A stretch of DNA of 64,000 nucleotides from Psammoneis japonica (lineage: Eukaryota), in assembly GCA_008632985.1 (NCBI GenBank), contig QPGO01000066.1, positions 203,771 to 267,770 on the forward strand, written 5' to 3'. A model generated the notes under the pieces. The model saw nothing but the letters and a program-made list of their open reading frames with translations, ran no database searches and was not told the origin of the DNA. Shown here in pieces: positions 21,652 to 55,778 of the stretch; positions within the stretch are counted from its first letter, which is position 1; each line of letters starts with the position of its first letter. A program made the position numbers and the translations under genes.

Positions 21652-22851
21652 CTATTCGGCGACATTGTTGTTGGAGTTCTCGCTCTGTCCGCGACCCGAG
21701 TCGTCATCATTGGCAGCAGCAGCCGTCTTGAGACGCTTTACAAGAGTTTCCCGAGTGCCGTCGGGTTGAGTTCCGCTTCCTCGAGCTTCCTACGCATCCT
21801 AGCTACACTCATGTTTTCGATATTGTCCTCGTCTTGGTCCAAAGCCGCGGGCTCATATGCAGCCGCCACCAACTCTCGGAGCAAATCGGGAGAATCCAAT
21901 GACAGAAAAGCCTCTGACTTTCTCACTGCCTCACTGTGGGCTACAAAAAATGCTAGCGCAGCTTCCTTGAGAAGGGCACAGTTCTTACGTTCGGCAAAGA
22001 GAAGCAAGTCGACAACGCTGTCCACCGTAATGGCCGATTCAACCATCTTGGCTTCTACACGAAGCTTGAGACTAACACAGTTATACTTGTCAGCAAAATC
22101 AAGCAACGACATTGCGCCTTTTTCGTCCATGTCGGTGTCCGTGGGAAGTTCGTCAACGTAAGCATACCGCAGAAACGATGAAAAGATGGATGGATCAACA
22201 TCATCAATCATGATCGGAGCCTTCTCTTTGTTGGATTCGCACTCAAATATTTCAGCAAAGCCTGGAGCCCGTTTGGCAAGAATGTTTTTATGCGCCTGAA
22301 AACTCTTGCCACCAACAGAAAAGGAAACATCCGAATAGTCCATTGAGTCGAGCAAATAAGACAAGTCCCTCTGTAAGGTGCTTTTGGGATGCCACATCTC
22401 AGGCATGGCAAGAACATTCTGAATGTCCGCTTTTATCATCAGAGCGCCATTCTCCAGAAATCCATTCTCTGGATCGAGCACAGAATCCCGAGTCTCAAAA
22501 TCTGTCCATCCCCACGATTGATTTTCTTTCTTGAGCTTCGCAGACGCAGTCTCATTTCCAGCTCGAAATGAGAAGTTCGCCTCAACAGGTTCACGACCCT
22601 CCACTTTGGCACGCTTGAAGTACACAGAGAGATGAACCACGTCCTCACTTGACTTATTGTCACCACGTGGATACAGCCGGATCTGCCACAAATTCCCGTG
22701 GCAAGAAAGTGGCTTGGAGATGACTCTTTCTCCGCGTTGATGCGGGAAGATTCTCGAAGTCTTTAAAGCTTACACAGATGGTGTGCTTTGGAGATAGCAA
22801 TTTGTCGCTCTGAACTACATCAGAAGCTACAATGCGTTCTTCGTCCGCCAT
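21652..22851 (-). CDS. MATH-BTB/POZ (SPOP-like) protein with C-terminal SAP-like motif; two 1-nt frameshifts (~22745, ~21764)
   Basis: WQIRLYPRG and WGWTDF (MATH); SDVSFSVGGKSFQAHKNILAKR (BTB). Correcting two C-runs gives NLPHQRGERVIS and ELNPDGTRETLVKRL...VAE*. Confidence 0.88.
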
Positions 22852-23396
22852 GGTGGTTAAAATGTTGAACGTCGTTCCGGTTTTGGAGTTTTGGAATGTT
22901 TTTGCGCCGCGAATGCACGCAGCGCTACTGTGCGCCGCTGCGGCCGCAGGGCACAGACAAACGGACCGCGAGTCACGAAACGCCAGCGCAGAAGTGCCGG
23001 CAACTTTGAACTACGACAAGAGATCCATCGTTCTTGTCACTCCACAATTGTCAGAATTGTCCATGATCTGCTCCATCCCGCGACATCTTTTGCCCTCATC
23101 CCAGCAGTCCATCACAGAGTGGCACGCCATCATGGCTTTCTCATCTGGTTGTTTCGTTTTGCTTTGCCATTTCTTCAACAGCACTGGTTCTCAGCTCCTC
23201 AATCAGCTCAAAGGCCTCAATTTGTCATCATGTTTGTTGAAAACTGCCATTGGTTTTTTTTTTTTTCGAAGACTTCGATGAATCAGCACACATGTGCACC
23301 CTGCTGCCTTTGGAGACAATGTGGAGACATCATTGCCCTGTGTGTGATGATGGATCTGACTGAGTGTGTTGCATCATCCACTGCTCCAGGGAAGTT

Positions 23397-24352
23397 CAGT
23401 GACCGGATCTGCAGATGACAGCCAGACCTGGATGGCCAAGCAGATCTCCTTGAGATTTGTCTCTCACTTTCTTTCTGACTGGTGCTGTTCATCACTGTCC
23501 CAGCACATGTTGGATTGTGCAAGCAGAACCTTGTCTGTTGTGACAGCTGACCGAGTCATGAGTCGTGAGTTGTGTGTGCCAGCGATGACACATCAGACGT
23601 GACTCACAGTCACACACCCAGTGGACAGACATTTCATCACTGTCCTGGCATGCATTGGATTGTGCCAGCAGACCCTTGTCTGTCAGGTCATGAACACCAT
23701 CATGCTGTCCTCCACATCATCAGATGGCTGAGGCTTTGTCTGGGATGGGTCCAACACATTTGATGTCGTTGTTGTCACTGTGTTTGGTTCAATGATCTTC
23801 TCAATGAAGCACTGGCTTAAGATCTTGGTTGCATCATGGCAGAAACCAGGAGGTGTAAATTTGTCCACAATGATTGATGCATCCACAAGAGCACTGGAAA
23901 AGTGGTTGTCCAGGCAAGTGTGGGTGTCTCTGTGAGTGGAGTTGGGTCCAAATTTGAGGTTTGTGGACTTTGTCTTTGTCAAATCAATGGCTTTGGTTGA
24001 CTTGTTGGCCATGGTTGGGCACGCAAAATTTCTGCGCAAAGCTCTGGCATGTGATCCATGATGGTCCTGTTGGTGCAGTTGGTGGGAGAAAAATTGGTGG
24101 TGAGATGGAGATGGCATTTTCTCTTGACAAAAATGGGGCTCTGTGGCACAAATTCTGGTTTGTGTGTTCTGATGATGGCGGAACAGTGCGATGGTGCTCA
24201 TGACCTGACAGACAAGGGTCTGTTGGCACAATCCAATGCATGCCAGGACAGTGATGATGACACAGTGCTGGTTGGAAAGAAAGTGAGAGACTGATGTCAG
24301 GGAGATCTGCTTGGCCATCTGGGTCTGGCCATCCTCCACAGATCCAGCACAC
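23397..24352. repeat. Three copies of a degenerate repeat (23397-23540 +, 23635-23724 +, 24168-24352 -)
   Basis: Shared gatggccaagcagatctcc and catcactgtcctggcatgcattggattgtgc blocks in direct and inverted orientation. Confidence 0.85.
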
Positions 24353-24523
24353 TGACAGCATTGGAAATGATGGTTGGACAATGCATGGATTTGTGTGCTT
24401 TGCAGCAGCAGCAGCATTTGGCCACTGATGGTGCACTGAAATTCCAAAAACCATGCACCCATCATGTGTGACAACTCCTCCCATCTTTGCTCAAGCTCGC
24501 AACATGTGAGACATGTCAAGCAC

Positions 24524-24922
24524 CAATGCATTCTAACTCAGGCAGGGCTGCTTGTGACATTGGGCCCACACAACAATTTTGTGCACAAGCTCCACAGCAA
24601 ATGCATCAGGAGATGATTGTGCAAATGATTGCCAACAGAAAAAGAGGCAAGTTTGTGATCACATCTCCTCTTTCATTCTTGGAGAACATCACTTCTGCTT
24701 TGCCCATGTGTGTGCTTCAGACATTGAAGGCTGCACCCAGTTGGTTTTTCCTCTTGAATTTTGGTGTGACAAAAAGCCTTTGGCTTCACAAAACTGGGAT
24801 CATGAAACAAGTTTGCAGAAGATGACATGTGCAATTGCACGTGTGTGACATGTGGCACATGACAAAAAACTCTGACATCACAGTTCAGCAGCACAAGGTC
24901 CCACCTGGAGCTGGGGTGCATC
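24524..24922 (+). mobile_element. Decayed full-length copy of the ~390-bp MITE at 62535-62924
   Basis: Both ends are homologous (tgtgacattgggccc; cacagttcagcag..aggtcccacct) with similar spacing. Confidence 0.8.
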
Positions 24923-25677
24923 TGCTGTTGTGCCGAAGTTGCTGGAGACAACTTGGAGTGCTTCGCACATCTTGTTCTGTCTTGTTGAATTTTCCACTCT
25001 CTGTGACAGCACAGGAACAAAACTCCCTCCACTCTCTTGCTTTCAACAGCCCAGCCTGTTTCCAAAAAAGCCTGCACATGACTTTCTCAGCTCTGTGTGG
25101 GCTCAACCAAATTTTGCCCAGGATGCATCATTGTTTGTGCCAGCCCCTGTGTGCTCGAAACAAGCACTTTTGTCAAGAGAAGCACATGCCTTTGAAGACT
25201 TTGAGTGCATCACAGTGGAATCAGCAAATCAACTGCTGCAAAGAGCTGCAGTTGGACACAAGATTCTTGCCAAGCTCTGGGTTTTTTCCTCCACTGCAAG
25301 AAGCATTCCCACAATTCCCAGTCAACAATGACACTTTGAAGGGCTGCCAAGGCACAAGCCCCTCTCCATGGTGCTGGAAACTGCCAGGTGTTCCTCCCTG
25401 TCTTGAACCAAGCTCTGAGTCGATTGCTGCTCACACATGGTGCATTGCCAGATGTGATTGCCGCAGTCTTCTGTGCCGTGCAGGCACAAGGAACACCGAC
25501 TTGTATCCTTCACAGAAGTCAGATGGCCAAGCATTGGACATTCAACTTGGGGGTGTTTGTGGCCATCGAGATTCTAGAAGCGCAACTAGAATGAATCCCA
25601 CACACTCCCTCTACTCGTAGCTCGAGCATCATTGATGCTACTAATTATATGATCCCTAGTTATTTCCCGATAATATA

Positions 25678-26913
25678 TTACGTCGACATCGTTGTGTTTT
25701 CTTCTGCTTCGGCAAGTTTCTTCATATCGGCATGTGCTTGCAACGTCAATCCTTGTGTCAATTCCAAAGCTTTGGCCTTTCCAACTCGTTTTGCAAACGA
25801 ATCGAGCCAACCATAAATTTCAGTATGGCTACCAATGACTTTGAACGTATTCAAGCGGTGCTGAAAGTCGTTTGCCGACTTGCGTCCCATAAAGACTTGT
25901 GCTGATCCCATGTAGTGTTGGACTCGAAACATGGCTTCGGAATACGGTGCATTTGGGCCATTGACGCACATTACCGGACTAACACGGTGAGGTGAGCTCA
26001 CGCCGCCTCCATTGTACCGTGACGCGTCAATCATTGGTTTGCCCGGATACAGGTTTTCCAATTCTTGGTGCTTAATATATCGAAGTGTATAAAACAAATC
26101 AACATCAAATCCGTCCGGAGCATACGTTTCGTTGCTGTCTTCGGGTGAAAACAAGACACGAGGAAAAACAACGCATGGCTTTCGAAAATGCCAATATGGA
26201 TCGGTTTGATTCAGCTCATTGGCAATGTAATGAGCCGCCGTTCTTTCTCCAATCCGGGGCACTCTTGTTCGTGGGTGTGTCTTGTTTTCGATCTCTTGTT
26301 GAAATTTCAAATTGCATTCTCTCCTGGATGCATCATCCTTATCAACCGCACACCGCCACGGTTCACCGTCGTCATCATGATAATAGTTGAAAACAAGATA
26401 CTCGTCCGTATCCACCAAGAGCGTCCACGTTCGGTTCTGCCGTTTCAGTGAGTTGAGACAATGATGAATAAATGCCTTTTGACGTCCCCGGTGAAGCTCG
26501 TGGCGTTGGAGGTTGGTCGCATTGTCATTCAGAAACGCTCCCTTTGGCAGGTAATCCTCGTCACGCCACATTTCAATCGTGAAATTTGATAGCGTCCGAA
26601 ACTCCTTCAGAATCGGTTCTGGCGAGATTTTGCTGTATGGATCGACCGCAATAATCAAATGACGGAGTGGCAAGACTTCATAATGATATGCTAGCCATTC
26701 TGGCAAGATGCGATTATCATCCTTGACAATAAGACACGCCGAAAAGGTAAAAGGAAAATCATTGTCAATTTCCGTTTTGACTTTGGGCGGAAGAAAGATT
26801 GCTTCCTCTAGTGACTTTGGGAGAAAGCTGTTGAAGGCCAAATGAAAGTTTCGAGTAAGACCGAGGACCGCGATTATGGCTACAACGAGCAAGCTCTTTG
26901 AAAAGGGAGTCAT
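25678..26913 (-). CDS. Glycosyltransferase-like type II membrane protein (GT-A fold, GT2/GT92-like), paralog 1
   Basis: N-terminal hydrophobic anchor; SACLIVKDDNRILPEWLAYH; DxD motif VDTDEY; C-terminal VQHY. Confidence 0.88.
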   Translation of the reverse strand: MTPFSKSLLVVAIIAVLGLTRNFHLAFNSFLPKSLEEAIFLPPKVKTEIDNDFPFTFSACLIVKDDNRILPEWLAYHYEVLPLRHLIIAVDPYSKISPEPILKEFRTLSNFTIEMWRDEDYLPKGAFLNDNATNLQRHELHRGRQKAFIHHCLNSLKRQNRTWTLLVDTDEYLVFNYYHDDDGEPWRCAVDKDDASRRECNLKFQQEIENKTHPRTRVPRIGERTAAHYIANELNQTDPYWHFRKPCVVFPRVLFSPEDSNETYAPDGFDVDLFYTLRYIKHQELENLYPGKPMIDASRYNGGGVSSPHRVSPVMCVNGPNAPYSEAMFRVQHYMGSAQVFMGRKSANDFQHRLNTFKVIGSHTEIYGWLDSFAKRVGKAKALELTQGLTLQAHADMKKLAEAEENTTMST

Positions 26914-27493
26914 GGTCGTTTTTTCACAATGAAAGCAACAACAACAGGTGCACTGAGTCCATTTCCTCCTTGATCGTGTAGCGAAAGCTCAACGGACCAA
27001 AATGAAACGGATGGAAAAAGTGGCCGGGGAAATATTTATCGATCATACAGATATAAGGATTTATGTATAGAGTCATTCATTGCAATGAAGTGCGATATAT
27101 GTAGCCGTAATGTGTCATTAAGTCGATATTCAGGCTGTATATAAATTTTAATACAACATCCACGACAGTCTTTTGTAAAAAGGCAACGTATGTACGACTA
27201 CATAAGGAAGTCTTTCTGACTCATAATTGCTAGGAATGTCATCTAGCTTCTTTCCTAAGTACAATGACGCAGAGCTTTCTTGATGAAGTTGTATCTTTCC
27301 GCTTGCGTGCCACGTGCAACCTTCGTGATAGATGGTGACAACATATCTCAACATGCATACCGTGTATTCAAACATCGGAAGCCACGTAGACTCTGTAGGG
27401 AATTATGCCGTACGGTAGGTAGGTGAGGCACGCACTTGTTCCCGTTTTGTTGTTGCTGCGGGGCGTGAAGTTGTTGTTGCCGTTGTATTCACC

Positions 27494-28462
27494 ATGACGC
27501 CGCCTCTTTCGGATGCAAGTCCAGCCAATGGCTCGTTTCAATACCATTTTTCCGATGAGGACCTGAAGGAATTCTCATGGCAATTGGATGATCATCATCA
27601 TCATCATCCTCCTGCAGCAACAGCAACCGAAGGTGACGCTGAGGTTCCCGCTGTAGCTTCTACGGCGACTCCTGGTACAACATCGAAACCACCACAAATT
27701 CCTCCCACTGTACCGACTGAAATTGCCAAACCAGAGCTTAGCTTGGTGTCATCCTCCAAACCGGATGCATCTCGTGCTCAACGCAAACGATCGCGTGAAA
27801 AGCAAAGGAGATGCGATATCAATAATCAATTCAGTGACTTACAGCAGACCTTACGAAGCATCGAAGTGGAGCGTAATTCTACTCAGGGAATGTTGCAAAC
27901 CAACAATCGGGTCGATTTGATTGCACGTACTAAAGCCCTGTTAGAAGAGCTGCACGAAGAAACCAAAAAGCAGAAAACCGAAAAGGAGGCCTTGGAAAAA
28001 GATCTGGCGGACACGAGGAAGATTGCCGAAGACACCGCGGCGCGGCTGAAGGAGGCAACTCTGTACCACCCAGGAGTCCCACAAAAGCAAGTCATGATGA
28101 TGGTTCCCATGATGGTCCCTGCCGGTGCAACACCGGGATCGACTGCCACTGTCGTACCAGCTACTGGTACAACAGCAGCAACAACTGCAACGACAACCAC
28201 CGATGCTTCTGGTTCTGGTACAGCAACTCCTACTCCACCCGCCGTTTATGCCGTGCCGCAGCCATTCATGCCTTCGCCCTTTATGGGAATGATGCAGCCC
28301 GGAATGCAACCAGGCATGATGCCTTTTATGCAGACGAACCCAATGGCTCCACACACTGGTGTTCCGGCTCCAGCGGACGGAACGACTACTACAAGTCCGG
28401 TTTGGAAAAACGTTCACTCCTCTAGCACGACACAGGGAGGCAACTTGGCACACTGTGCCTAA
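27494..28462 (+). CDS. bHLH transcription factor
   Basis: RKRSREKQRRCDINNQFSDL...NRVDLIARTKALLEEL followed by a coiled coil and a Pro/Met-rich tail. Confidence 0.92.
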   Translation: MTPPLSDASPANGSFQYHFSDEDLKEFSWQLDDHHHHHPPAATATEGDAEVPAVASTATPGTTSKPPQIPPTVPTEIAKPELSLVSSSKPDASRAQRKRSREKQRRCDINNQFSDLQQTLRSIEVERNSTQGMLQTNNRVDLIARTKALLEELHEETKKQKTEKEALEKDLADTRKIAEDTAARLKEATLYHPGVPQKQVMMMVPMMVPAGATPGSTATVVPATGTTAATTATTTTDASGSGTATPTPPAVYAVPQPFMPSPFMGMMQPGMQPGMMPFMQTNPMAPHTGVPAPADGTTTTSPVWKNVHSSSTTQGGNLAHCA

Positions 28463-28599
28463 GGGAAAAGAGTGCAGTGTGTTGTGTCACACAACAGCTA
28501 GAATACTCAGGATTCGTCTTTAAAAAGGAATCCACACAAAATGGGAACTCAAAATAGAGTGTTTTAAAATAAAAAGATCTTGCATAATGAAGGACATTC

Positions 28600-31500
28600 G
28601 TTTCTGTTCTGCGTGTCTCTTGTTGCACTGTCATCTCCTTCAAAGCAATTCAGATGAACGTTTAAAAAACCTGTTCTTCACGGAAGAGCAGTGGGTGCAG
28701 AACACGCCACAGGGCAGAGCTCAAGAGCACACAAAGACATGCAGCCGCTTTCTGCACCAAAAAAAAGAAAGGCAGTGTTTTTTGTCACAGAGTTCAGCAA
28801 ATGTCACACATCAGGGGGGTGGGTGGGGGCACTGAGGTTTGCAATTCCACACCATGGCAGTGCAATCAATTGTCTGTAGCATTGGTCCATTGTGGCATGC
28901 TGGTTGTTGCAGCCACCGCACGTGCTGATCAGCATCATGCAACAGATGTTGAGCCCCCCAGGGGGGAATTTGTGTGGCAAGGAAATTTCAAATTGGCGGC
29001 GCGCATTTGCACTGGACTGTGGTGCTAAAAACACGAGCTTCATCCTCAGTGCTGGTGCAACAGATTTTGTTCCCATGCCTTTGCTTGCATGCTGCCCATT
29101 GACTGCTCCCTCTAATGCCTGTGAAGAGCTGCAACCAAGTCCACACCATGTTGTGCTGACAAAGATTTCTCCAATGCAGCCAATGAGCTCCTGTGCTGGT
29201 CAGATGTGCTCCTGTGATTGTCACAAGCAACTCACAACCACCATCTGTCAGCTTTCTCTCAGAGCACTGGAGTGTCAGGGGGCATTTTTGCAAAAGTGTC
29301 TCAAATCATTGAAAAAACAGAGCTGAGACTGGGTGCTCTTGGTGGGTGCAAATGAGCACTTGGTGCCCAGCAGTTGTCATGATGACAATGACAAACCTTG
29401 GCAGTGCTCCTTTGACAAGAGCGTCACAGCCAGAATGGAGTGGCAATGCAAGCTTTTTCAAACAACAGGCAGATCAAAAACAAGAGATGTCGAACACAAG
29501 CAAGGTTGCCCTCTCTTCTCTCCAAATGCAAATGCTCCAACCCAAAGCACCTGGCCCTGCTGTCAGCCATTTTTCTCTTCATGCCATTTGCAATGGTCTG
29601 GGAGCTGAATGCAAGCATCTTGTGGCAATTTTGAACAGCTGCCTCCAGCTGCTTTTTTGTTGCTGCAAGAGAACATGATGTGCTGGCTGGTGCAAGCTCT
29701 GCACAAATGCACACGGGCACACTTCTGAGAGCATGTCAATGCAAAATGTGAGCTCACAAAATGTTTTGACGGAACCAATGGCATTGAAGCGTTGTTGTTC
29801 GTGGAAGATCGTTTTCGTAAACTGGCTGCAAAACTTGAATTCACTGCAGGCGAAGAACCATTTGACAATTTCGAAGAAGTGTTGACAGATGCCACTGAAG
29901 ATAAATGGTCCAATCTCACCATGGCGATTCCGGATGCGCAGAAGACGGTGGCTCGTTTTGACCAAGAATTGGCTCGTTTTTGTTTGTCATGTTGTGAAAC
30001 TGAAGCGCGTGACATGATGATTGAATGCTTGCTCTCTCTTAAAAAGCCATGTGATGTTGAAGAACAGGCACATGCGGATCGAATGGAGACCTTGGTGCGA
30101 CACACGAACAAGTTGCCGGGAAATAATCCAGTTGTCACTCAGAGCCAGAAGAAGAAGATGATTTTTGACAGCTTCCCTTTGTCATGGCGTGAGATGTGCA
30201 CAAGAGCAGGACGCACGATTGGAAATGATGCGTTGGCGGAAATTGTCACGCACATGAGCACGGAGAAATCATTTGCAGACAGGAACAAGAAGACGTCGAA
30301 AAAGCACAAAGACGGACAGTCGAAAGGTGGCGGCTCGACCAAGAAGAAAGGCAATCGCATCAACACAGAATCTCAATGTCCTTTGCACACTCACAATCAC
30401 AAGTGGAAAGATTGCATCATGAATCCCGACTCCAACAACTGCCGTCCAAGAACTGATCGTGGAGGTCGCGGATGTGGCGGCCGTGGTGGTCGAGGTGGCG
30501 GTCGAGGTGGAGGTCATGGTCATGGCGGAGCGCAAGGTCGTGGCTGGCAAGGCCGTGGCTGTCAAGGTCGCAGTGGTGGCCAAGGAAACTGCAGTGGTCG
30601 CGGAAACTGCAACTCTGGCGGCAATGGCGGCGAGCATCATGATGATGGTGGCTCTTACATGCAATGTCAAAATGACACCCGAACCAATGCAGATGGCGGC
30701 GGTTACGGCAATCCGGCCAGAACGGCTCCTCCTGATGATTGGTCTGCTGAAAGCCATCATCTTGATTCAACAGGAGGGCCTCAAGAGTGTCGAGGTGGAG
30801 CGGGAAGTTTTCGACCTGGTGGTCGCTTCTCGGGACGCGGTCGACACTGACCCAATGAGCTTGAAGAGCTGTCGTCCGAGTGTGTCGCTCCTGATTCCCA
30901 CATGTTTGATGATTGCACTGATTGCATTGATGATTGTCTTGCACATGCTGCTGATTTATTTGATGATGACGATTTCGGAAATTGTGCTGTGAATGACGAA
31001 GACGATGTGGGACTTGAGTGCGCTGCACCAACCCCAAAAACAAAACCAATTGGACCTTTAAATGTGGTCCCTGCAACCTTGTTCGCAGCACGATTCATTC
31101 AAGACAAGGAAAGCAAGCACGTGATGCGGGTGTTGCTTGATTCCGGTGGAACCCATTCAATGATTCATGCTCGGGTGTTGCCGGTTGGAGCGGTTCCAGC
31201 ATTGGAAGAAACAGGACCGATTCGTGCGAAGTTTCGGACAATGGCAGGAGAACTCGAATCAACTCGTTATGTTTGACTGCAGGACTTGGTGCTCCCTGAA
31301 CTCGACAAGACCAAACATGTTGACGGCATGCATGCGCATGTGTTTGACTCACCCTGCCAATGTGACATGATCCTTGGACAGGACTTCTTGGCAAGAGCGG
31401 GTGTCACATTGGATTTCGAACACGGAATTGTCAAGTGGCTCGGTTCAAGCATCGCGATGAAGCCAAGGAATCAGCGGACTGGCATCCAGCAATGACTCGA

Positions 31501-34500
31501 CGATTTGACTGATGAGCTGGCTGATGATGATGAAGTGTGGGACAGCCACATCTTGATGCAAAGTGTGAGGAGACGTCCCCTTCTGAAGTGGCTTCGGCTC
31601 AGAAGCACCTTGCTGCCAAACAGCAAGAGAAATTGCGCCTCGTGTTGGAGAAACACACTGCTCTTTTCAATGGCACCCTCGGCAAGCATGCTGGCAAAAA
31701 AGTTCACCTTGATGTTAATCCCAACGCCGTTCCGCATCATTCTCGAGCGTGTGCAGTGCCGCACAATGATCTCGAGACCTTCAAGCGAGAATTGGATCAC
31801 TTGGTGGCTCTTGGCGTTCTTGAAGAAGCCGGAACTTCGGAATGGGCTGCAGGTGCTTTTATTCGGCCGAAGAAGGATGGTCGAGTGCGGTGGCTCAGCG
31901 ATTTTCGGGAACTTAACAAAGCCCTCAAGCGCAAGGTTTGTCCCTTGCCGATTGTTCAAGATGTGTTGCAGAAGAGAGCCGGGTGCAAATTTCTTGCAAA
32001 GTTGGATCTCTCAATGATGCACTGTACGTTTGAACTGGACGACGACTCCAAGGACCTGACGACAATTGTGACACCCTTTGGAAAATGTTGACACTGCCGT
32101 CCAGCAATGGGTTTGAAACCGGCTCCAGACATTGCGCAATGCTTGATCGAGAAAACTGTGCACGACTTGGACGTTGACGTGCATGTTGATGATCTAGCTC
32201 AATTTGATGACGATTTTGACATTCACCTTGCTCGTCTTGACAAACTCTTGCAATGCTTGGAAGAAGCTGGGTTTAAAGTGAATCCTTTAAAATGCGAATG
32301 GTGTGTGCAGGAAACGGATTTCCTTGGGCATTGGCTAACTCCGACTGGAATTCGTCTGTGGAAGAAGAAAGTGGAAGCCATTCTGCGAGTGCAACCTCCG
32401 GAAAATGTCAAGCAGCTTCGTTCGTTTCTTGGTGCTGTGACATGCTGTCGTAACATGTGGCCTCGGCATTCTCACCTGTTGAAACCCTTGACAGATCTCA
32501 CAGGCAAAGGCTCGTGGACGTGGACAGCAGAATGTCAGGCGGCGTTCGAAGAGATGAAAGCAGTCCCAGCGGCCGAGACGTTGATGGTGCATCCGAATCA
32601 CAACAAACCCTTCCACATCTGCACCGATGCCAGTGATCACCAGATGGGCACAGTGATTGCACAGGATGGAAAACCTGTTGCATGTTGGTCTCGAAAACCT
32701 TGGTTTGGTTTCACCGTGTTTTTGAACAAAATTCCCCGGGATTGCCACCTTTCACCCTGTTTTTCTACGGAAAGGGTGAATTCCCGGGGAATCGACACGA
32801 GTTGCCCTTCGTCATGTACAAACTGAATGCATGAATAAAAAATTGTGCATTGGCAATTCCCGGTGCTTCCCCTCTCGTACATTTCTGCGTGTTCTACGTG
32901 CCGGCACGCACGGAACCACACATCAGAATTGAAAATCAACAATCGCAACAAAAATGGGCAACACGCAATGGAGCGGCTCGCATCCCATTTATGACAGCTT
33001 TTGTCAAACAATGATGACACCAGTCAATCTAGTGAACAACATTGCGATTGACAGCATAAAATGTAAAATGAATGGATTCTTGACAGATTGTGTTTGGAAA
33101 AAAATGGTGTGTTGACAGATCGTTGCACTTGCTCTTTTGTCGTGCGGTCACAAATGCAAGCCATGCAGCGTCTGCAGCAAAGTCCAAAGCAAAAGCAGAA
33201 CTGTCTGTGGCAAACAAAAATGTGGCAGATTGAATGGTCTTGCTCATTTTTCCAGTCGACACATCTCATGTTCAGAATGAAGCAGATTGTTTAGAATCAC
33301 TGTTGTCGTGCAGCTACAAATGCAAACCATGAGGCGTCTAAAGCGAAGGCTCAGGCAAAAGCAGAACCTCACAAGGCTAATAAAAACTATGGCAGATTGA
33401 GTGTTCATGCTTGTTCTTTCCTTTGAACTGTCTTGTTTGCAGAATGCAGTGTACCGTGCATTCCTTCTTGTGTCGCGTGGTCACAAATGCAAACCACAAG
33501 GGCTCTAGAGCCAAGGACAAGGCAAAAATAGAACCTCACACAAGCAACGTTAATGTGGCTGATCCAATGGCAAAGTTTCTTCTTTCCTTGCTCCACCACA
33601 AGGGGCCGCTTTGTGTCGATGTGTCGATGCAATCATTGTCGTCGTCGCTCGGTCATGGTGATAAAAGCACACCCGCCTAACTGCAATTACCGTACATTGC
33701 CGCACTCCATTCGTTTTTGTTCCCCTCCCCTGAGCCCTTTCAGGCGTTCCTTCCCGCAAAATTACCCTCATTTCCCGGGATTCCCCCAAAAGGGCAAGGC
33801 AACTTCCCCTTGCCCTGGCCATTTTGGGGAATCCCCAAATGGGTAAAACCAAACTAAGTCGAAAACTGAGTGCGGTGCAACAAAACTGCTCGACGATCGA
33901 AAAAGAACTCTTGGCTGTTGTCATGTGCTTCCGCGAATTCTGGACGATGCTCCTTGGCGGCAACTTGCATGTGTTCACTGACCACAAGAACCTTGCCTTT
34001 CGCACCTTGAATTCACAACGTGTGCTCCGTTGGCGCCTCTTTCTGGAAGACTTTGCCCCTCAATTCCATTGCATCGAAGGCCGACCAAATGTCTTGGCTG
34101 ATTGTTTTTCTTGTTTGCCTCATGTGGATCCTCCCTCTGAAGGGAAGAGCTTGGCTCCGGGTGAAGGAACTGTTGTTGATTTTGCTCCGCTCGATTCGAA
34201 GTTGGTGCCGAGTGAGGAACCATCCGAAGTCGAGGATTTCCGCGATGAGGACTTGGAGCTCGGCGCATGCCGATTCAAGTGTTGTCGCAACATTGAAAAT
34301 GAAGGCCACTCACACTTCTTCTCTTTCTTTGTTGATGAGCCGGAACTGTTTGATTCCTTTTTGAATCACCCTGCGATGCAGGAGATGCAAAATCCAATGA
34401 CGTCACAATGGATTCAGGAGCACCAGTTCAAGGACCAGCAATTGAACCAGATGCGCATTGCTCACCCTGATCATTTCCTTGTGGAACATGTGAACAATCA

Positions 34501-35590
34501 ACCGCTTGTGTGTCATCGCATGCAACCAAATGATCCTCCAGGACAGTGGAAAATCTGTTTGCCGACTGCGCTTGTGCCCGACATCTTGCGGTGGTGTCAT
34601 CTCGTCCTTGGCCATGCCGGAAGCCAGCGCATGCGTGAAACAATCCAGACTCATTGTTGTCATCCTGGGTTGCGTTGCATGTGTGATGAATGCTCTTGTG
34701 CTGATTGCCAACGGACAAAACTTTGGGTCCTGGCCATGGAGAGTTGCCCAAACGAGAAGCTCCATTGACTCCCTGGTCGGAAGTGGTGGTTGACCTCATT
34801 GGCCCGTGGAAAATCAAAGCACCGAATGGAGAGATTGAGTTTCGGGCGTTGACCTGCATTGATCCTGTCTCCAATCTTGTTGAACTGTTGAGAATTGAGA
34901 ACAAAACTGCTCGACATGTTGCTGACCAATTCGAAAACTGCTGGCTTGCATGCTGTCCCAGACCGAGTCGATGCATCCACGATGACGGCAGCGAGTTCAC
35001 CGGGTGTGAGTTTCAGATGCCATTGCAACAAGCCAGAATTGATGATGTGCCGACTGCTTCATACAACCCTCAAGCCAACACTGTTTGTGAACGAATGCAC
35101 CAGACTGTCGGCAATGTGTTGCGCACGCTCATTGCTTCTAATCCACCTCAAAACCTTCAGGGTGCAGCTGGCCTCGTGGACGATGCTTTGGCAACTGCAA
35201 TGCATGCAACTCGCTGTGCTGTTTCCCGTTCTTTACAGACATCACCAGGTGCCATGGTGTTCGGACGTGACATGATCTTAGATGTCCCGGCACTGGCGGA
35301 TTTGTTGATGATTCAAGGCCATCACCAGATGCTGATCAACGACAACTTGCGACGAGCCAATGCCAAGAGAAGATCCTGCGATTGTCAAGTGGGTGATCAA
35401 GTTCTAATCAAGTCGGTTGTGGCACGCTCTCGGTTCGTCGAGCTCCTCATGTGGTTGAGCGCCTCAACATTCGGCGCCTGATTCCTTTTCGCGGTTGATC
35501 AGGGGGTTTTCTTCCCAACACCTGGGTTTCCTCCTGCTGTTGTCTTTACTTTTGGTTTTGGTCCTTGGTTTTTGGCCCTTTGCATGATCC
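28600..35590. other. TpA-depleted domain 5
   Basis: TA nearly absent except inside the 32699-33858 insertion. Confidence 0.93.
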
Positions 35591-35621
35591 TCTAGTTCTT
35601 TCGGATCATGGAAGGGAAGAG
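29760..35621 (+). mobile_element. Inactivated Ty3/Gypsy LTR retrotransposon (gag, protease, RT, RNase H, integrase), apparently 5'-truncated
   Basis: Gag ~29760-30850; protease LLDSGG; RT KKDGRVR..DFRELN and HVDD; RNase H TDAS..EKELL..TDHKNL; integrase Zn finger with DLIGP/HDDGSEF/CERMH. Domain order is PR-RT-RH-IN, with internal stops and frameshifts. Confidence 0.96.
32699..33858. mobile_element. 1,160-bp non-autonomous DNA transposon (hAT-like: 8-bp TSD, 17-bp TIR) nested in the Gypsy RNase H
   Basis: TSD tcgaaaac at 32691-32698 and 33859-33866. TIRs cttggtttggtttcacc / ggtaaaaccaaactaag. Removal restores VACWSRKLSAVQQNC. Three internal ~170-bp repeats at ~33140-33550. Confidence 0.93.
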
Positions 35622-35810
35622 TGCAGCAACTCACTCGCACGCTTCTGATATATAGTATTAATTTTGAATATTAGATTAACGTAGCCGTTTGAGAGAGGCT
35701 CGCCAGCGTTCGCTAACGCTTAGGCTCCCCTCTCTTCGGTCTACTCACTTCTTTGTTTTGACATCAATCTCAGCTTGAGCTTGCAAATTGGCTCAAAATG
35801 TCTGTGACAT
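35610..35810 (+). repeat. Putative polypurine tract and 3' LTR of the Gypsy element
   Basis: ggaagggaagag followed directly by TG at 35622. The right end is uncertain and no second LTR was found. Confidence 0.45.
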
Positions 35811-36033
35811 AATCTCTTGGAGAATGACCGACAAATTTTCGAAATTGAACGGAAACTCGGAACCGCGTTTGTTTTGGTTGTTGGTGTTGGGGGTTAGTTG
35901 GCATGCGTGCTGTTCACTGTGTGCTCTATTGCTCATTGCTTACCTCACGCCATTGAATGAAACGAAAACGCATGAGACAAAAACAAACTACACAGAAAGT
36001 GGCAGCTTGAAAGAGACACTAATCAAGAAGAGA

Positions 36034-37320
36034 ATGCCCCAGACGAGAAAGACGGCTAGGAGATTCAAGAAGAAGCCATCTCGCTGGATCGTCTTACCGT
36101 ATTTGTTGGTCATACTCATTTCCCGCATCTTTCGTATCGAGCTTCATCTGCCTTACACCGAAGACAGCTGTGAATCTTCCGATTGCGAATCATGGGCACC
36201 GCCAAAAGATTTTCCCTTTACGTTTTCGGCTTGCATAATTGTCAAAGACGACAATCGCATCATACCCGAATGGATTGCCTATCATTATGAGACACTCCCT
36301 CTCCGCCATTTGATCGTTGCGGTCGATCCATACAGCAGAGTTTCGCCAGAACCGATTCTGGAAAAATTTCGGACGTTACCCAACATGACGATTGAATTGT
36401 GGCATGATGAAGATTATCTAGCAGAGGGAGAGTTTCGAGACGACAATGCTGACAAAGAGAAGCGATACCAATTGCATCTTCTTCGTCAAAGGAAATTTAT
36501 GAGCAAATGTCTGGTTTCGCTCAAGCAGAAAAACAGAACGTGGACAATGCTCGTAGACCCAGACGAGTATCTGATTTTCAACGACTATGACAAAGACGAG
36601 GAAGCAACACCGTGGTGCCTAGGGGACAAAAATAGGACTGAATGTCAAGTAAAGTTTTATGAAGACATTGAGAAGGGGGTGCACCCACGATCAAGACTCC
36701 CCAAAATCGGGGAGGCTACGGTGGCACACTATATGGCTAATGAGCTTAATCGCGCCGATAGGTACTGGCATTTCGATAAGCCATGCATGGTGCTTCCCCG
36801 TGTTTTGTTTTCAAACGCAGCAAGCTCACCGAATGAGACTCAAGCCCAGGTTCCTGAAGGATTTGATCCTAACGCATTTTACACACTCCGATACCGCCAT
36901 CACCAGGCGCATCAAAACAAATTTCCAGGGAAACCCCTCATGGATGCCTCGCAGTATGATGGTAGCTTCGTGCCGTCTCCTCACATCGTTAATCGCGAGC
37001 TGTGTGTTAACTCCCCTTTTGTTTCGTATGCAGAAGCAATGTTTCGCGTACAGCACTATATTGGCCCCAAGGGCACATTTATGGGTCGAAAGAGCGAGGC
37101 AGATTTCAAAAAACGCGTAGCTAGGCTTGGAAGGATTGCGGGTACGAATGATGAGATTCGGGGATGGCTGAAATCTTTTGCACATCGTGTCGGCAAGAAG
37201 AAGGCCTATGAATTGACTGAAAAAACGACACGGGATGCTCATGCAGAAATGAAGACGTTAATGGAGGCATCATTGAACAAAACAAATTCAACAAATTCTC
37301 AACCGGTAGCGGTAGTGTAG
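36034..37320 (+). CDS. Glycosyltransferase-like protein, paralog 2
   Basis: ATG at 36034 precedes a TM helix; SACIIVKDDNRIIPEWIAYH; VDPDEY. Confidence 0.88.
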   Translation: MPQTRKTARRFKKKPSRWIVLPYLLVILISRIFRIELHLPYTEDSCESSDCESWAPPKDFPFTFSACIIVKDDNRIIPEWIAYHYETLPLRHLIVAVDPYSRVSPEPILEKFRTLPNMTIELWHDEDYLAEGEFRDDNADKEKRYQLHLLRQRKFMSKCLVSLKQKNRTWTMLVDPDEYLIFNDYDKDEEATPWCLGDKNRTECQVKFYEDIEKGVHPRSRLPKIGEATVAHYMANELNRADRYWHFDKPCMVLPRVLFSNAASSPNETQAQVPEGFDPNAFYTLRYRHHQAHQNKFPGKPLMDASQYDGSFVPSPHIVNRELCVNSPFVSYAEAMFRVQHYIGPKGTFMGRKSEADFKKRVARLGRIAGTNDEIRGWLKSFAHRVGKKKAYELTEKTTRDAHAEMKTLMEASLNKTNSTNSQPVAVV

Positions 37321-38799
37321 AGGTTGATTTGGCTTCTGAGTACTATTATATGCACGTCAATGACCCAGACCTCCTTCCTGGACAGTCCGAAGAGTCGCCG
37401 CTAGAGTATAGCTTTCAGGCTTGAGGCTTGTTGCTGCGTTAACTCGAGAACCTCAAATTTTGCGATTCTTGCGTGTGATCAAATGTAGTTCATTAATCCG
37501 ATCCACATTGTCAAAATGAGAGTACACGAGCTCGTAAAATGTGGATTATAGTTTTCATGATGCTGCTGTGCTGTTGTGGTTCATGCATCGTGCTGACTCA
37601 TCTGTTGTTGATTTTAATTTTCGTTTTCTGTGAGAGAGAGGCTTGTGTCTGTATCTCATTGGCTGATGCAAGCAATTTGTGATGACTTGACAAAAGTCAT
37701 GGATGTGTGCTTGTGTCATCAAAGCTGCCCCTGCATTGTCAACGTGCCAAAAAAAAAAACCGACTCTTTGCACAAGGATGCCTTTCTCAAGCCAAAACTG
37801 CAAAAAAATGAAGGGCTGGTTTGAAAGCATTTTTTGCATTTCTGTGAATTGTTGCAGATGACCTGAACATGTGTCACTTCAACCTGTGACAAGCAGCAGA
37901 CATTTAACCTGCCACACCCAAGACACCAGCTTGTTGCTTGAACAATGTGTTGTCTGGCCATCATTGCTTGAGCAAGAACGACAGCATCTTGTTTTTGCAC
38001 ATTTGAGGTCACACAAACAAATCTGTCATGGTGAAAGCAGCTTGAGCTGGATGCCAGTGGCAAATGCCTCAATGTGGGCCTTGCAGTGGCATTGTTTTGC
38101 CTCTTCCTGCCCCATCATCATCATCATGCTGTCATCGCAGCCATCACAGAGAACAATCTTTGGAGCTCAGTCAGACAATGCTGTCAAGACAGGCAAGCAG
38201 CTTTGCCTTTCCAGGAGCAGCAGCCATTAGAGAAAAGGGACAGAAATGACAAAACAGACAAAAAAGATGGAACCTGGTGTGACTGGCAACCACGCAAAAT
38301 GTGCAACACTGCTCACTCTCTGACAGCTGCACCAGATGATCCATGAACTGCCAACAAGACCATTGTCAAGTTGATCAAAGATGACATCCAATGTGAAAAC
38401 ATGCTGCAGACCTGGAGAGTCACCTTGGTGAGAGAATTGCAGTGCATTGCAGCACATGACTGAATGGGCTGGAGAGCATTGCAGCACTGGTTCTGTGGTG
38501 ATGAGTGTCCAATGGAAGTTCAAGTCCATTGCTGGTGTTGATTTTGTCCAGACCATTTTCTCAAAAAATGATTGTTGAAAGTCACAAAGAGAGTTGGTCA
38601 TGGCAAACCACAAAATGACAAGCCAAAAGCAAGCCACCAAGCTTCCTCAAGCAAAATGACATCAATGCTGAATCACCAGCCTGCTGTCCAGCATCACCTC
38701 CCCTGAAAAAAACCTCATTTTGCAAATGCCCACATGATTTTCTCTTCTTGCATTCATGTGCATCACTCTCATTGTTGTTGTTGTTGTTGTTTTTAATTC

Positions 38800-39430
38800 C
38801 CTTGTCATGATGTCCAGTGGCATTTCTCTGGCCAATGATTTCGCTGCAAACAATGATGTCACTGTCATTGACATTGACGTGGAGCATTCTCCTCTTGATG
38901 ATGACCGTGATGATGGTGACAGCAAACCCAATGACAGCCCCAATGATGCCAGTGCCAACGACAGTTTGTGCAATGTCAACAATGATGATGCCTCTCATGA
39001 GAAAGATGAGAAGATGCCGGACCACCCAGAATGGCTCATCAATGAGAAAGACACCACTTCTGATGGGTTGGCGCATGATGTCACCACTGGCTCTCCTTCC
39101 CACCCACCTGCATCTTCTGCTTGTGATGCTCACAAAAGCCCACCTGCATCCCATTCAGATGTGCTGTGCTCAGTTTCTGTGCCATCGTTCATGGAAGGCT
39201 GTGGCACTCACTCTGCAGAGGGCCCACTCAAGGAGCAAAGCAAAGAACTTCTTGCAAAAGACTGGCTCACTGTTGATCTTTGCAACAAGACAGACAGCTT
39301 GGCTTCAACCAAGGAAGAGTTTCTAGATGGATCTAAAAACCAATGGTGCTTGGATGCACTCAAGCAAAAGTGCCACAAGATGTTCCCACTTTGCAAGCTG
39401 CGCCAGGCTGCAGTCCATCAACTGGCTGAT
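38800..39430 (+). mobile_element. Possible remnant of a Mutator-like transposase N-terminus
   Basis: Acidic leader then WLTVDL...LKQKCHKMFPL..LRQAA, reminiscent of diatom MULE-type ORFs from memory only. No catalytic core seen. Confidence 0.25.
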
Positions 39431-42400
39431 TTTTTGCAGAGAATGACTTGGATCAACTGTGCGTGGTGGCTGCAAGGGTGTTGAGCACAATGCTGGACTG
39501 TGCACAAAAGGGTTTGTCCATTGATGCAACCTTCAAAACCATGTTGTTGATGACCAGTGTGTGGACTTGCCATGACAACCCCATCTTGGCACAAAGCAAG
39601 ATCAAGAACAGAGCAGCAAAGCAGAGCTGGCTCATGTCTTTCCAAGAATGTTGCTGCACTGCAGCCATGGTCATTTGAGCCATTGGTGCTCAAAAGCATT
39701 CTGCAAATGTTGTTGATTGTCTTGCCTTGAGTGAGGATGACATCATCTGTCCACCAAGAAAACAAAGTTTTCAGAAATGCTCAGCGGGCAAAACAATGGG
39801 TCATTCACAAGACAACTGCTGCCCAAGTCTGCATGCTTTCAAGAGACCACCCCTCAAGGTGAGAGGCATGAAGCAAAGGTCAGTCCCCTCTGCACTCAAC
39901 TGCAAAATGCCCATGTGTTTCACACAATGCACCGTGATGCTGACGACAATCCTGCAGTCCACAAAACACACCCCAATGGTGGACAATTGCAACAACAGTT
40001 GCTCTGCAAACTCCTTGTGGACAATTGTGCAGATCCAATTGGCAGTTCCTTGATTGCTTGCAAGCAAGGCTCAGTGCTGCCCATTTTTCCACATGGCAAC
40101 AGCATGCCAGCCTTGTGTGACTCTTTCTTTTGGAACAACAGCTGGTTCAGAAAGGAGTTGTCCATCCACTTTTCCTCTTTCCAAGCACCCTTCCCATTTT
40201 GCTCACAAAAACATCTCATTCCATCAAAATGTGACAAGCATTTTGTGACAAAGCTGAAATTTCTTCACAGATGCATTCGCAAAAGTGAGGCACCTGCCCA
40301 GGTCCAGTTTCTTTTTCAAAAATTTGTTGAGCTCTTTGATGCAAGTGTGGCCAGTCACTCATCCACTTGGGAAGGAAACTGATGCCAATCTTGTTGCAAA
40401 TGGTGTGTTTCTCAACCAAGTCTTTGCAATTCTGTGTGTCCCTTGTGACAAAGTTGTGGATGGTCTTGTGGCATGATGAGCATGCCATCACGTTGTTGAG
40501 AGACTCTCCAAACATGTGCCACAAAAAAAAACACAAAGAATCACAAGGAAGCAACTTTGTGCTGCCACATCCACTGAGGCATGACAACTGGAATCTTTGA
40601 CACATTTTGTCTGAGCTGACAAAATCTTTGCAAGTTCCCACCCAGGTGCAGTTTGTTTGAATTCCTTGAAAAGCTCAAAACAACCATCTGGCACAACAAG
40701 CACCCCAAATGCATCCCATGACAACTTTGAGGCTTGGCATGGAGCAAAAGCAACATGCAAGTGGTGATTCCTCCAAGAAACACAGGGCTCTGTGAAAAGA
40801 AATGGAAGGCACAGAGCATGGAAACCATTTCCAGCATGCTCAAATTGAAACTCAGAGCTGGACAAATGATGCAATCCATTGCCATCATTGCAAATGATGG
40901 TGGATCAAGACTGCACTTGTTGTGCACAATGTCAAACCCTGGAAGATGCTGGCATTGTTCTCCTTCTTGCAGGTGATCATCAATGAAGTGACATGACTCC
41001 TCAAAGCCATTGTCAATCTTCCATGATTTCTTCCAGCAAAACATCATGGTTTTTGCGATTGTCACACACGTTGTCAGTTGATGGACACATTTGTCCATTG
41101 AGGCCAAGCCAAGCACCACATGCAACCTTCAATGTTCCAATGACAGATTTGATGATGGCCTTGTCATCCTCATGGCAACCACAGTTGTTCTTGATGTCAC
41201 CAACAGACAACCGCATGGACTCCAACACATTGTCCTTGCAATCAGTTTGGGCGTGCCAATGTTTTTTGCACTTGGGGTTGTGCTGCATCTGTTGCAGAAA
41301 GAAAAGGGTGGAAAGTTGCAGATGGATCCATCACTCCATTCATCCAGAGCAGACACAATCCTTGCATCACAAAAGTTGGAGAAGGTGATTTGGCAGCATG
41401 GCATCCTTCCCATCCTTGTGAGGCAACACTGATTGGCACTTTGTCAAATGAAGCAAACTGGGCTCATGTGTCATTCCCAATGGGAAATGAACAGTCTGCC
41501 TCTCCAAATGAGGAGAGATTTCCTGCTGGATTTGGAGATGCCACAATGGCTGGAATTGGGCTTTTCAAGTGCAAAGCCAAGGTTGAAAATGGATTCCTCA
41601 AGCAAGTGACAGCAAGAACCTTGCTTTGTGATTGACAGGAACACATTGCAGCTGGCCAGTGAAGAGAAAACTTTCATTGGAAAAAGAGAAGGGTCAGTGC
41701 ATGCAGCCCTCAAACCAGGACCATTGCCATCAACAAGCTGCATGTTTTCCAAGCCATCTGATTCAGGGACATTGACAATGAAGAGTGCATCTTGTTGTCC
41801 ATCAACTGGGACATTTGCAAAGTTGTTGGTGCCTGTGCTCAATCCAACAGAGGAACAGCCACAGTCAGAATCAACATCATCATCAGTTTTTGACATGCCG
41901 CCACCACCATCAGCCCAGATGATGACACCTCCAACACCACTGTCTGCATCAATGGTGTCACCACCTTTCTACATGCCACAACTGCCACCAAAGCAGGCCA
42001 CAACATCAACCCTGGCAAAACCTCCAACACAATTGGCACAACATTTGGAAGCAGCAACACAAGTTGAGGCTGGAACACAGCAAGCATCACCCACCACAGG
42101 AACACTGCCCAAGACCGACCACCCCACCATGAGGGTTGCTAAAGACAGGTGTGGTTGAACCAAGAGAGCACCCATGAAGCTGCCAGAACATGAGCGGAAG
42201 CCACAATGCTGTGCATTGCATGTCATGGCCAGCTGTTGGGACCAGGGCATTGTGACATGGCTGCCATGCAATGGTGCAGCACCTTGATGCACAGCATTCT
42301 GACCCCCCCCCCCCCCGGCTCAAAAGAACCATTGCCTGAACATGTCTTTCTACAATGCTGCTTGGCAGGCTTTCTCCCTGCAAAGAAATCTCAGCACAAA

Positions 42401-43346
42401 ATGTGCTGACGCACAATCAGCATTGAGTCTGCTGAGGAAGTTTGTGATGCACATTCCACCATGAGGACTTAACACCCAACAAAAAACTGTTCAAGTGTGC
42501 GCACTCTAGACGCCTGTAAAAGCCAATCTGCTTGAGCATTTTATGTGAAAATGCTGCATGCGCCAAAAGATGCACAATTTACATTCAAAGTTGATTGTCA
42601 TTTTGTGTGTCACCTGGGACTGGAGCACGTCTGAAGCAGCTTTCCATGATGCACCCGGAAGGGAGAGAGGCATTTCACAGGTTTACACTGGAAAACACCT
42701 GGATTTGTGCAGGACAAATGTTTTGCAGCTGCCATTTTTGGATGAGTTGTTCGTGCCGAGTGTTGTGTCAGATGTGCACAAAGCAATTTTACATGTCACA
42801 CAATGATGTTGATGCAAACAAAATCCTGGTCTCACAAATGTGAGTCAGGGGGCAGAATGACCCAATGTGAGACAGACAAATGCACGGGGCTTCACGGGGC
42901 ATCTCTTGGCCGATTGCTGTTTGACAAGATGGTTCATCAAAAGTCTGGCTCCAAGACTCCTCCTGCTGATGGATCCTGTGAAGGCAAGAAAAGATCCAAA
43001 GTGGTGTGTTCACCTCTCCAATTTGTTGTGACAACAGCGATGATGAGTGCGTGCAAATCCAACAGAACAGCCATTGTTGGGCTGGTGTGCAATGACTCTT
43101 GCTGCCTGTGGTCTGGCTGTTTAGATGACAAACAACAAACACATGGCAGTGTTCAGCTTTGGACAAAGAATCAACTTTGTTTGCTTGCACAGTGCTTGCA
43201 TTTTGCTGGAATGATGTGGCACAGCTGCGGAGGATTGTCATTTGGTCCAACCAAATTCATGTGGCCGTTTGAGTCAAAATCATGAGGTTTGTGTGGGAAA
43301 AAAGGGGCTGAAGCACATTTTTGGTAAGATCCCCGGTCGGCGTTAA

Positions 43347-43760
43347 TGCCATGCCAACATCAAACCAAGCAACATGATGCTGGAAGGGGCCAGGGGAAAA
43401 ACAGTGGTGACGATTGACTTCGGATCCAGTGTTTCATGCGGTGAGAGCATCACTGGGCTCTCTTTTGATTTCGGACTGGACTGTTCTCCCAAAGGCTTGC
43501 TTGAGTGTGACCTGACTTGTCTGGCAGTTTCCATTTTGCACATGACGACTTCGACAAACAATCCGCTGAGGGAAGAAGTGACATGAGCCGGGCTCGCGCG
43601 TGCTGTCGGAGACCCATCAAACATTGCTTTGAGGGTCGCAAAAGCTTGTTTGATGGAGGGCAAGAGCATCAATGAAATTTGGGAAGAGGCCAAGGGGTTC
43701 ACAGAAAGCCGGTTTGGAAATGCGGAATGGCTTGTCGACTTTGAGCACATGTTGCCACAG
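43347..43760 (+). pseudogene. Protein kinase C-lobe fragment
   Basis: CHANIKPSNMML (HxDIKPxN with gccGac->gccAac) followed by TIDFGSS; in-frame TGA at 43584. Confidence 0.75.
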
Positions 43761-54927: not shown

Positions 54928-55778
54928 GAAACTTTGATAATGCTGTGTGATTTTTATAATCCATAAACCAAGTCAAGTCTTGGACCAAGCCGATTTGTCA
55001 ATTGGCGGCACGCTTTTCTTGCATTTAAGAGGAGTACGCGACGTTGAAACAGCTGTTCGGTCTGCGTGCGCCCCGAATTGAAGTTCATAATGAAGCTTTC
55101 GAACGATACAATCGCATAATTACATGTTGCATTACTCGATAGATATTATTTGGCTTCTGGCTATCAAAAATGCAAACGTTCCTCTTGTCCTCTAGCTACT
55201 GCAATGCAACCAAGTTGAGCAACTCTGTTGTGATGTGAGTTACGTTTTCAGTGTCGCAGCGCATGGGATAGATCTCCACAATAATGTCTCTACACAAGCC
55301 AACACAATCCCCAACATATCGCCAAGCCGCGTATCTACCAAACCTTGAAGCTTGCTCTCGATCTAGGACGAGAGTACTATTTTCGCAGTGCCCTAGGCCT
55401 ACAGCTCTAAGTATGGCTAGCTAGAGAGTAGCTACTCTCTACTCTAGAGAGAGAGCCGTACAGTAGAGCTAGTAGAGAGCATTGTACCTCAAAGAGGGAC
55501 GATAGTACGGTACCATACCCGTATCTCGCGTGCCTCACCCCTGTGAAGCTTGACTCCTCCGACTCAATGAAGCCATCGTCCCATCTTTATAATAGTATTT
55601 GTGAATGTATATACTATATCATTGGGTATTTGGCAAAATTCCGCTCACTTTTTCTTCTGCAACAGCAAATGAAAATGTTCGCGTCCCCCATTTCTTGGTG
55701 CCGTGTTTGGATCCATTCCCCTCACAATTTCGCACACCTCAGATTTGCTGAAGCCAACGTTTATGACAACAAAGCAAA

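Follow-up and report, generated by a model that had tools for sequence, protein, structure and literature searches.

A DNA transposon nested in a TA-depleted Gypsy fragment of Psammoneis japonica and a TpA to TpG/CpA change confined to mobile DNA

A 64,000-nucleotide stretch of the Psammoneis japonica genome (GenBank assembly GCA_008632985.1, contig QPGO01000066.1, forward strand positions 203,771 to 267,770; hereafter the window, whose own numbering is used throughout) carries a 1,160-bp non-coding, non-autonomous DNA transposon with terminal inverted repeats (TIRs) at 32699-33858, where it interrupts a Ty3/Gypsy pol gene within the RNase H domain. Both the transposon (the insert) and the retrotransposon that contains it (the host) are depleted of TA, the host far more than the insert. 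The underlying change, TA to TG or CA, is strand-symmetric, confined to mobile DNA and graded by element, and it is present in a DNA transposon as well as in a retrotransposon. The insert itself is an ordinary non-autonomous TIR transposon bearing a signature that has been reported once before, in another lineage. We consider it likely that this cut-and-paste element inserted later into a TA-depleted Gypsy copy, that both were exposed to a process converting TpA to TpG or CpA, and that the insert is only partly converted.

Structure and age of the nested insertion

The TIRs are 17 nt long and pair at 15 of 17 positions (88% complementary), with the target site duplication (TSD) directly outside them. 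The left TIR is CTTGGTTTGGTTTCACC and the right TIR, reverse-complemented, is CTTAGTTTGGTTTTACC; they differ at position 4 (G on the left, A on the right) and at position 14 (C on the left, T on the right), which places TG and CA on the left against TA at both sites on the right. The two copies of the TSD, TCGAAAAC, at 32691-32698 and 33859-33866, are identical at 8/8 positions. The left copy falls on the pol codons for S-R-K-L, and excision of the insert together with one TSD copy regains an open pol frame, ACWSRKL/SAVQQNCSTIEKELLAV. The Pfam profiles of the domain resume across the insert in the same way: RT_RNaseH_2 is matched at profile positions 1-64 on its left and 67-99 on its right, and RT_RNaseH at positions 2-39 on the left and 42-105 on the right. 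Because it is nested in the host, the insert is the younger of the two. A preliminary description made from the letters of this stretch had proposed a perfect TSD, TIRs with only two differences (TA to TG and TA to CA) and a later insertion, and all three points stand.

A candidate for the empty site was found in public run X1, a single sample that is possibly the source of the window and in which 45% of the words sampled from the stretch occur. In one X1 contig 32690 is followed directly by 33859, with 1,168 bases skipped (the insert plus one TSD copy). Its shorter side measures 23 letters against a tool bar of 31, and this weak contig could represent an empty site in a Gypsy paralog or in the other haplotype.

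The order of Pfam domains in the host, RVT_1, RT_RNaseH_2, RT_RNaseH, Integrase_H2C2 and rve, is the Ty3/Gypsy order (reverse transcriptase, RNase H, integrase). RVT_1 and RT_RNaseH_2 lie in 32095-32697, RT_RNaseH and Integrase_H2C2 in 33869-34765 and rve in 34705-35481, with the rve and Integrase_H2C2 scores falling under the Pfam cut-offs. The closest named protein relatives come from the diatoms Ditylum brightwellii and Epithemia. A blastn comparison of 28000-36500 with the window revealed no flanking direct repeat that could serve as long terminal repeats (LTRs), and because no LTR pair was found the host is filed as a Gypsy-type gag-pol fragment rather than as a whole element. The TA-depleted tract stops near 35500, just before a TA-normal, gene-like open reading frame (ORF) that starts at 35779, and the host seems to be truncated at its 3' end.

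TA content and direction of change

The insert contains 26 TA in 1,160 bp where 84 are expected (observed/expected ratio, o/e, of 0.31), with CG at 0.73, TG at 1.53 and CA at 1.38. The host (29751-32698 and 33859-35480, 4,571 bp) retains 23 TA of 281 expected (o/e 0.08), with CG at 0.84, TG at 1.63 and CA at 1.32. The corresponding values for gene-like stretches of the window are 0.52-0.59 for TA, about 1.0 for CG and 1.13-1.26 for TG and CA. Expressed as TA/(TA+TG+CA), the insert (0.111) lies between the host (0.026) and gene-like DNA (0.21-0.22). When TA is counted against TG+CA, insert and host differ with an odds ratio of 4.6 (Fisher test, p = 5e-7), and the insert differs from two gene-like stretches with p = 4e-5 and p = 3e-4. 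These figures uphold the earlier proposals that the insert keeps more TA than its host and is partly converted, and the step in dose between the two elements supports the further proposal of a cumulative process.

The step is sharp at both junctions. The 247 host bases preceding the insert contain 0 TA, and on the other side the closing 235 bp of the insert contain 7 TA and the adjoining 1,203 host bases 0 (74 expected). It is thus the element and its age, and not the chromosomal position, that the dose follows; since the dose is set by the element, one sweep across the region at a time later than the insertion is excluded.

Across the window, 52 of the 128 bins of 500 bp are depleted (TA o/e < 0.25) and 65 are normal (at least 0.4), and the two kinds are arranged in blocks, with the genes that have Pfam matches sitting in the TA-normal blocks. 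In the most depleted repeat bins TA falls to an o/e of 0.01-0.03 and TG and CA rise to 1.7-2.1. Older repeats (28751-29750 and 38001-46000) combine a TA o/e of 0.05-0.08 with a CG o/e of only 0.15-0.21, to be compared with 0.08 and 0.84 in the Gypsy host. Either the loss of TA would run well ahead of the loss of CpG, or two separate processes may be at work.

Five paralogous ORFs, at 25678-26988 (on the minus strand), 35779-37320, 46000-47307, 55767-57053 and 57624-58913, give weak Glyco_tranf_2_4 matches just below the Pfam cut-off. These glycosyltransferase-like paralogs have normal dinucleotide contents (TA o/e 0.44-0.68, CG about 1.0-1.2). Two of them are 83% identical over 1,114 bp (36196-37299 and 46195-47304) and lie 10 kb apart, with normal TA. 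The duplicated genes are thus spared, and with this pair untouched duplication by itself seems not to set off the process.

The direction of change was assessed on the host protein, using an alignment with 20 homologs chosen from 120 listed as those covering at least 92% of the query. At the eight columns in which most homologs have Tyr, the host has none (0/8); it has Cys at four and His, Arg, Phe and Met at one each. In the same alignment it keeps His at 8/8, Val at 5/5, Trp at 3/3 and Phe at 9/10 such columns. Tyr makes up 4 of 1,460 residues of the host pol (0.3%), compared with 3.9% in the neighboring glycosyltransferase-like ORF, and of the 254 stop codons in the six frames of the host 222 are TGA, 26 TAA and 6 TAG. 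As read from this alignment, the direction in the host is from TA to TG or CA, as had been claimed beforehand. Comparison with other Gypsy copies bears on the strands involved. At 32638-32639 and at 34086-34087 this copy has CA and the majority of the others TG, and at 33916-33917 this copy has TG against CA in the others. No single step turns CA into TG, but each lies one transition from TA, so that the Gypsy copies must have been hit independently; the occurrence of CA and TG at one site in different copies means that both strands were hit, copy by copy.

Copies of the insert and alternative explanations

Other copies of the insert were examined in the X1 contigs, 1,237 of which align to 32400-34200 at a likeness of at least 80%. 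In nine contigs the likeness ends exactly at 33858, and the flanks beyond this point agree at only 0.47, as expected for different insertion sites. The insert family is mobile and multi-copy. A consensus of the left terminus taken from nine other contigs, CTCAGTTTGGTTTTGCC, in exact register and with an agreement of 0.74, has CA..TG at the two sites at which this copy has TG..CA in its left TIR and TA..TA in its right TIR. TA, TG and CA thus all occur at both TIR sites, and because only TA is one transition from both of the others, it is the likely ancestor. The left TIR varies between copies, so the asymmetry of the TIRs is not fixed in the family. This comparison had been set beforehand as the test of the proposal, and the asymmetric TIRs proved not to be common to all copies. 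The two left-TIR hits, 11 bp apart and on opposite strands, represent two events. The chance that two random substitutions would both fall in the class TA<->TG/CA is 0.0025-0.041, depending on the ancestral end and on the weight given to transitions, a figure that is modest and post hoc.

Variation between copies inside the insert was taken from the best 40 of 369 variable places, all with shares of at least 0.62 and presumed to be ranked by share, a point on which the tool is silent; parallel hits scattered over many copies would fall under the shares of these 40. Thirty-one of the 40 lie in the insert. At five of the 31 (32896, 32991, 33453, 33689 and 33693) this copy has TA and 62-85% of the depth elsewhere has TG or CA, and at one (33565) this copy has CA and the others TA. 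A further five read TG or CA here against CG elsewhere, and three read CG here against CA elsewhere. Among these places the only changes that seem private to this copy are 33565 and, in addition, the two TIR sites. Because the direction is shown in the host, the five TA sites are read as retained. On this comparison of sequences, our reading is that the present copy is probably among the less mutated ones of the family, as would fit a young insertion.

The history that we favor would run as follows. A non-autonomous cut-and-paste transposon, with 17-nt TIRs and creating an 8-bp duplication, would have entered a Ty3/Gypsy copy in its RNase H region. A process that turns TpA into TpG or CpA, which amounts to A to G on either strand, would act on transposon DNA and spare the neighboring genes. 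The host would have lost about nine tenths of its TA, and the younger insert roughly half of its own if it started near the gene-like level of the window. The left TIR would have taken two hits, one per strand, while the right TIR kept the ancestral TA. These hits presumably came after the present insertion, and the process may well have worked in repeated small doses rather than in one sweep. Chemically, the adenine of TpA could be deaminated on DNA and then copied as G in the following round of replication, a mechanism already proposed for Bigelowiella natans. We put forward more tentatively the general form of this proposal: a DNA-level, TpA-specific adenine mutator that reaches all mobile classes, acts on either strand in small doses given repeatedly, removes TA far more quickly than CpG decays and is still active.

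Several observations weigh against the favored history. The estimate of a half-converted insert assumes a start at the gene-like TA level, and a TA-poor family or a donor that was already mutated would give the same numbers. If the majority state at the variable places were ancestral, this copy would have gained five TA and lost one. The left-TIR consensus comes from nine contigs that failed to align, a biased subset whose agreement is 0.74, and the restriction to the best 40 of 369 places excludes the TIR sites from the copy-by-copy count. All contigs stem from one sample, perhaps that of the window itself. No TA-free gap in the insert exceeds 228 bp, a length that falls short of significance (p = 0.08). 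Among the differences between the tandem units inside the insert, the TA class accounts for 5/54, 2/66 and 5/62; these differences are mostly old and of other classes, so the array does not show recent TA loss.

The alternative that survives best, although we regard it as unlikely, is that the insert arrived partly mutated, or belongs to a TA-poor family, and has been untouched at this site, its TA level and TIR mismatches having been brought along from the donor. It gains from the scarcity of private changes, since apart from the TIR sites only 33565 has TG or CA here against TA in a strong majority, and from the many family copies that are more mutated than this one, which means that mutated donors exist. 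On the other hand, cut-and-paste transposition normally needs matching TIRs, and two hits in one TIR would make movement less likely. The left-TIR states differ from the nine-copy consensus at both sites and so are no widely shared subfamily mark. Also at odds with this alternative are the TG (1.53) and CA (1.38) values of the insert, which exceed the gene-like 1.13-1.26 and show conversion at some point in the history of the insert.

The remaining alternatives fare far worse than a mutated donor. That the TIRs were never perfect, and that their mismatches go back to an asymmetry already present in the family ancestor and unrelated to the TA process, is very unlikely: imperfect TIRs are common in DNA transposons and a chance of 0.0025-0.041 is not negligible for a post hoc pick, but the left ends of other copies have CA..TG where this one has TG..CA, and each variant is one transition from the TA of the right TIR.

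Still less probable is editing of transposon RNA by an ADAR-type adenosine-to-inosine activity followed by reverse transcription, which would make the signature a by-product of retrotransposition with no DNA mutator. The preference of such enzymes for a 5' U would give UA to UG and the host is a retrotransposon, but the insert, with its TIRs and TSD, moves as DNA and yet has the same shift and the same site-wise variation between TA, TG and CA. The CA and TG states of different Gypsy copies at the same site also speak for hits on both strands, copy by copy, and in B. natans the changes appeared de novo, in integrated DNA and in the course of vegetative growth (10.64898/2026.01.13.699255).

The least probable of all is the reverse direction, in which C-to-T changes resembling repeat-induced point mutation (RIP) would have made TA from TG and CA in the right TIR and left the insert as the more mutated element: TG to TA and CA to TA are the classic RIP changes of Neurospora (PMC7296669) and this copy has TA at five sites against the majority of the others, but the repeats of the window are depleted of TA and not enriched (bins down to 0.01-0.03, with TG and CA at 1.7-2.1), conserved host Tyr codons are now Cys or His codons, and CA and TG at one site in different copies need a TA ancestor.

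Known systems and neighboring features

In the published literature we found a TpA to TpG/CpA signature only in the 2026 preprint on B. natans, and no description from a diatom. In the mutation-accumulation lines of that species, two integrated viral regions received 230 of the 231 A to G or T to C changes, every one at TpA (Mettrop et al., 10.64898/2026.01.13.699255). The likenesses are the restriction of A to G and T to C to TpA on either strand, the targeting of foreign or silent regions (there giant-virus and virophage DNA) with the rest of the genome spared, the long-term depletion of TA with a gain of CpA and TpG, and the enrichment of TpA-poor coding sequences for reverse transcriptase and DDE endonuclease domains. 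There are also differences. The mutations were seen arising there and are inferred from copies here; B. natans is a chlorarachniophyte (Rhizaria) and the present genome is that of a diatom-like stramenopile. The main targets there are two viral insertions with mild depletion (Rho 0.45), compared with an o/e of 0.01-0.08 for transposons here, and older repeats here have also lost CpG, a word that is absent from the main text of the preprint.

The process also invites comparison with RIP in Neurospora and other ascomycetes, which likewise produces dense transitions confined to repeated or mobile DNA on both strands, destroys coding capacity and is recognizable by dinucleotide ratios and by the way in which copies differ. 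The chemistry is the opposite, since RIP makes TpA from CpA and TpG and raises AT, and here TpA becomes TpG or CpA. Unlike in RIP, the glycosyltransferase-like gene pair (83%, 1,114 bp) is untouched, and a sexual stage is not known to be involved here. Diatom DNMT4 is treated as a relative of fungal RID in PMC9998398, the consulted passages of which report no mutation signature.

If the proposal is true, the rewriting of TpA in mobile DNA by such a mutator would amount to a genome defense whose chemistry is the reverse of that of fungal RIP. What is new here is the step in dose between nested elements and the evidence that a DNA transposon is affected. Because this transposon moves as DNA, its involvement argues against RNA editing followed by reverse transcription and makes DNA the likely target. 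The nested pair is a rough before-and-after record of the TA-rewriting process; nested insertions could order and time that process genome-wide, and could be used as a clock if the mutator is still active.

Table 1. Coordinates of the Gypsy host and of the transposon nested in it (window numbering)
Feature	Coordinates	Strand	Basis
Host Ty3/Gypsy gag-pol fragment, RNase H domain interrupted	29729..35481	+	Pfam domains, composition
Left TSD copy, TCGAAAAC	32691..32698	.	Identical to 33859-33866
Left TIR, mutated end, TG at 32701-32702 and CA at 32712-32713	32699..32715	+	Inverted-repeat pair, 17 nt
Non-autonomous TIR DNA transposon, 1,160 bp, multi-copy	32699..33858	+	TIRs, TSD, contig copies, no Pfam match
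Left subterminal palindrome with repeated ATTCCCCGGG-type motif	32731..32792	.	23-nt arms, 83%
Three diverged tandem units, 166-167 bp	33124..33623	+	71-74% identity, alignment
Right subterminal palindrome, same ATTCCCCGGG-type motif	33777..33835	.	26-nt arms, 85%
Right TIR, TA kept at both variable sites	33842..33858	-	Pairs with left TIR
Right TSD copy, TCGAAAAC	33859..33866	.	Identical to left copy

The insert is hAT-like solely by the length of its TSD. It shares with hAT non-autonomous elements the 8-bp TSD, short TIRs (17 nt), subterminal repeated motifs and a lack of coding capacity. It differs from them in its ends, CTTGG and CTTAG, which are unlike the YARNG-type hAT end, and in its TSD, which matches the nTnnnnAn target pattern at one of the two fixed positions. 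Duplications of 8 bp are not exclusive to hAT; P elements and some Mutator-like elements give them too. No Pfam family was matched at E <= 0.01 by the two longest stop-to-stop frames of the insert. The ORFs scanned around it contain no transposase family, the integrase-type matches there being those of the host Gypsy only, and the 27 ORFs of at least 180 aa in the window outside the 27-39 kb region contain none either.

Direct-repeat families place the ATTCCCCGGG-type motif at both ends of the insert, and the subterminal palindromes that carry it are possible transposase-binding sites. The sole Rfam match of the insert, a mir-373 hairpin at the right palindrome, scores 27.7 bits against a gathering score of 69 and is taken as chance. 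The array of 167-bp units received no score from Tandem Repeats Finder. Its three units contain 0, 7 and 3 TA, the first (33124-33290) being TA-free. Other copies of the family lack internal stretches about as long as one tandem unit or longer, with skips of 167, 178, 187, 190 and 297 bases, and the number of 167-bp units therefore varies between copies.

Within the window, neither blastn nor a TIR pattern with up to 3 mismatches revealed a second copy of the insert; an extra match to the pattern at 27737, with 3 mismatches, is within chance expectation. Ten metagenome loci retrieved with a degenerate 20-nt TIR pattern match over only 12-21 nt confined to the pattern and were attributed to chance. 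Nothing in runs X2 and X3 aligned to the stretch, which by the warning of the tool is no proof of absence.

The 117 TAs that survive in depleted bins of the window differ in context from the 1,390 TAs of normal bins (5'-neighbor chi-square, p = 1.7e-12). Between depleted and normal bins TTAA stands at 18.8% vs 5.1%, CTAA at 16.2% vs 7.1%, ATAT at 0% vs 8.5% and ATAG at 2.6% vs 10.9%, a pattern suggesting that TAT is the most and TAA the least easily lost, in a comparison that is confounded by coding against non-coding sequence. An ORF on the minus strand at 21738-22769, with MATH, BTB and BACK domains and 8 Tyr among its 344 residues, has a TA o/e of 0.38 and adjoins the depleted block 23001-25500; this is probably a gene still intact on the margin of a mutated tract.

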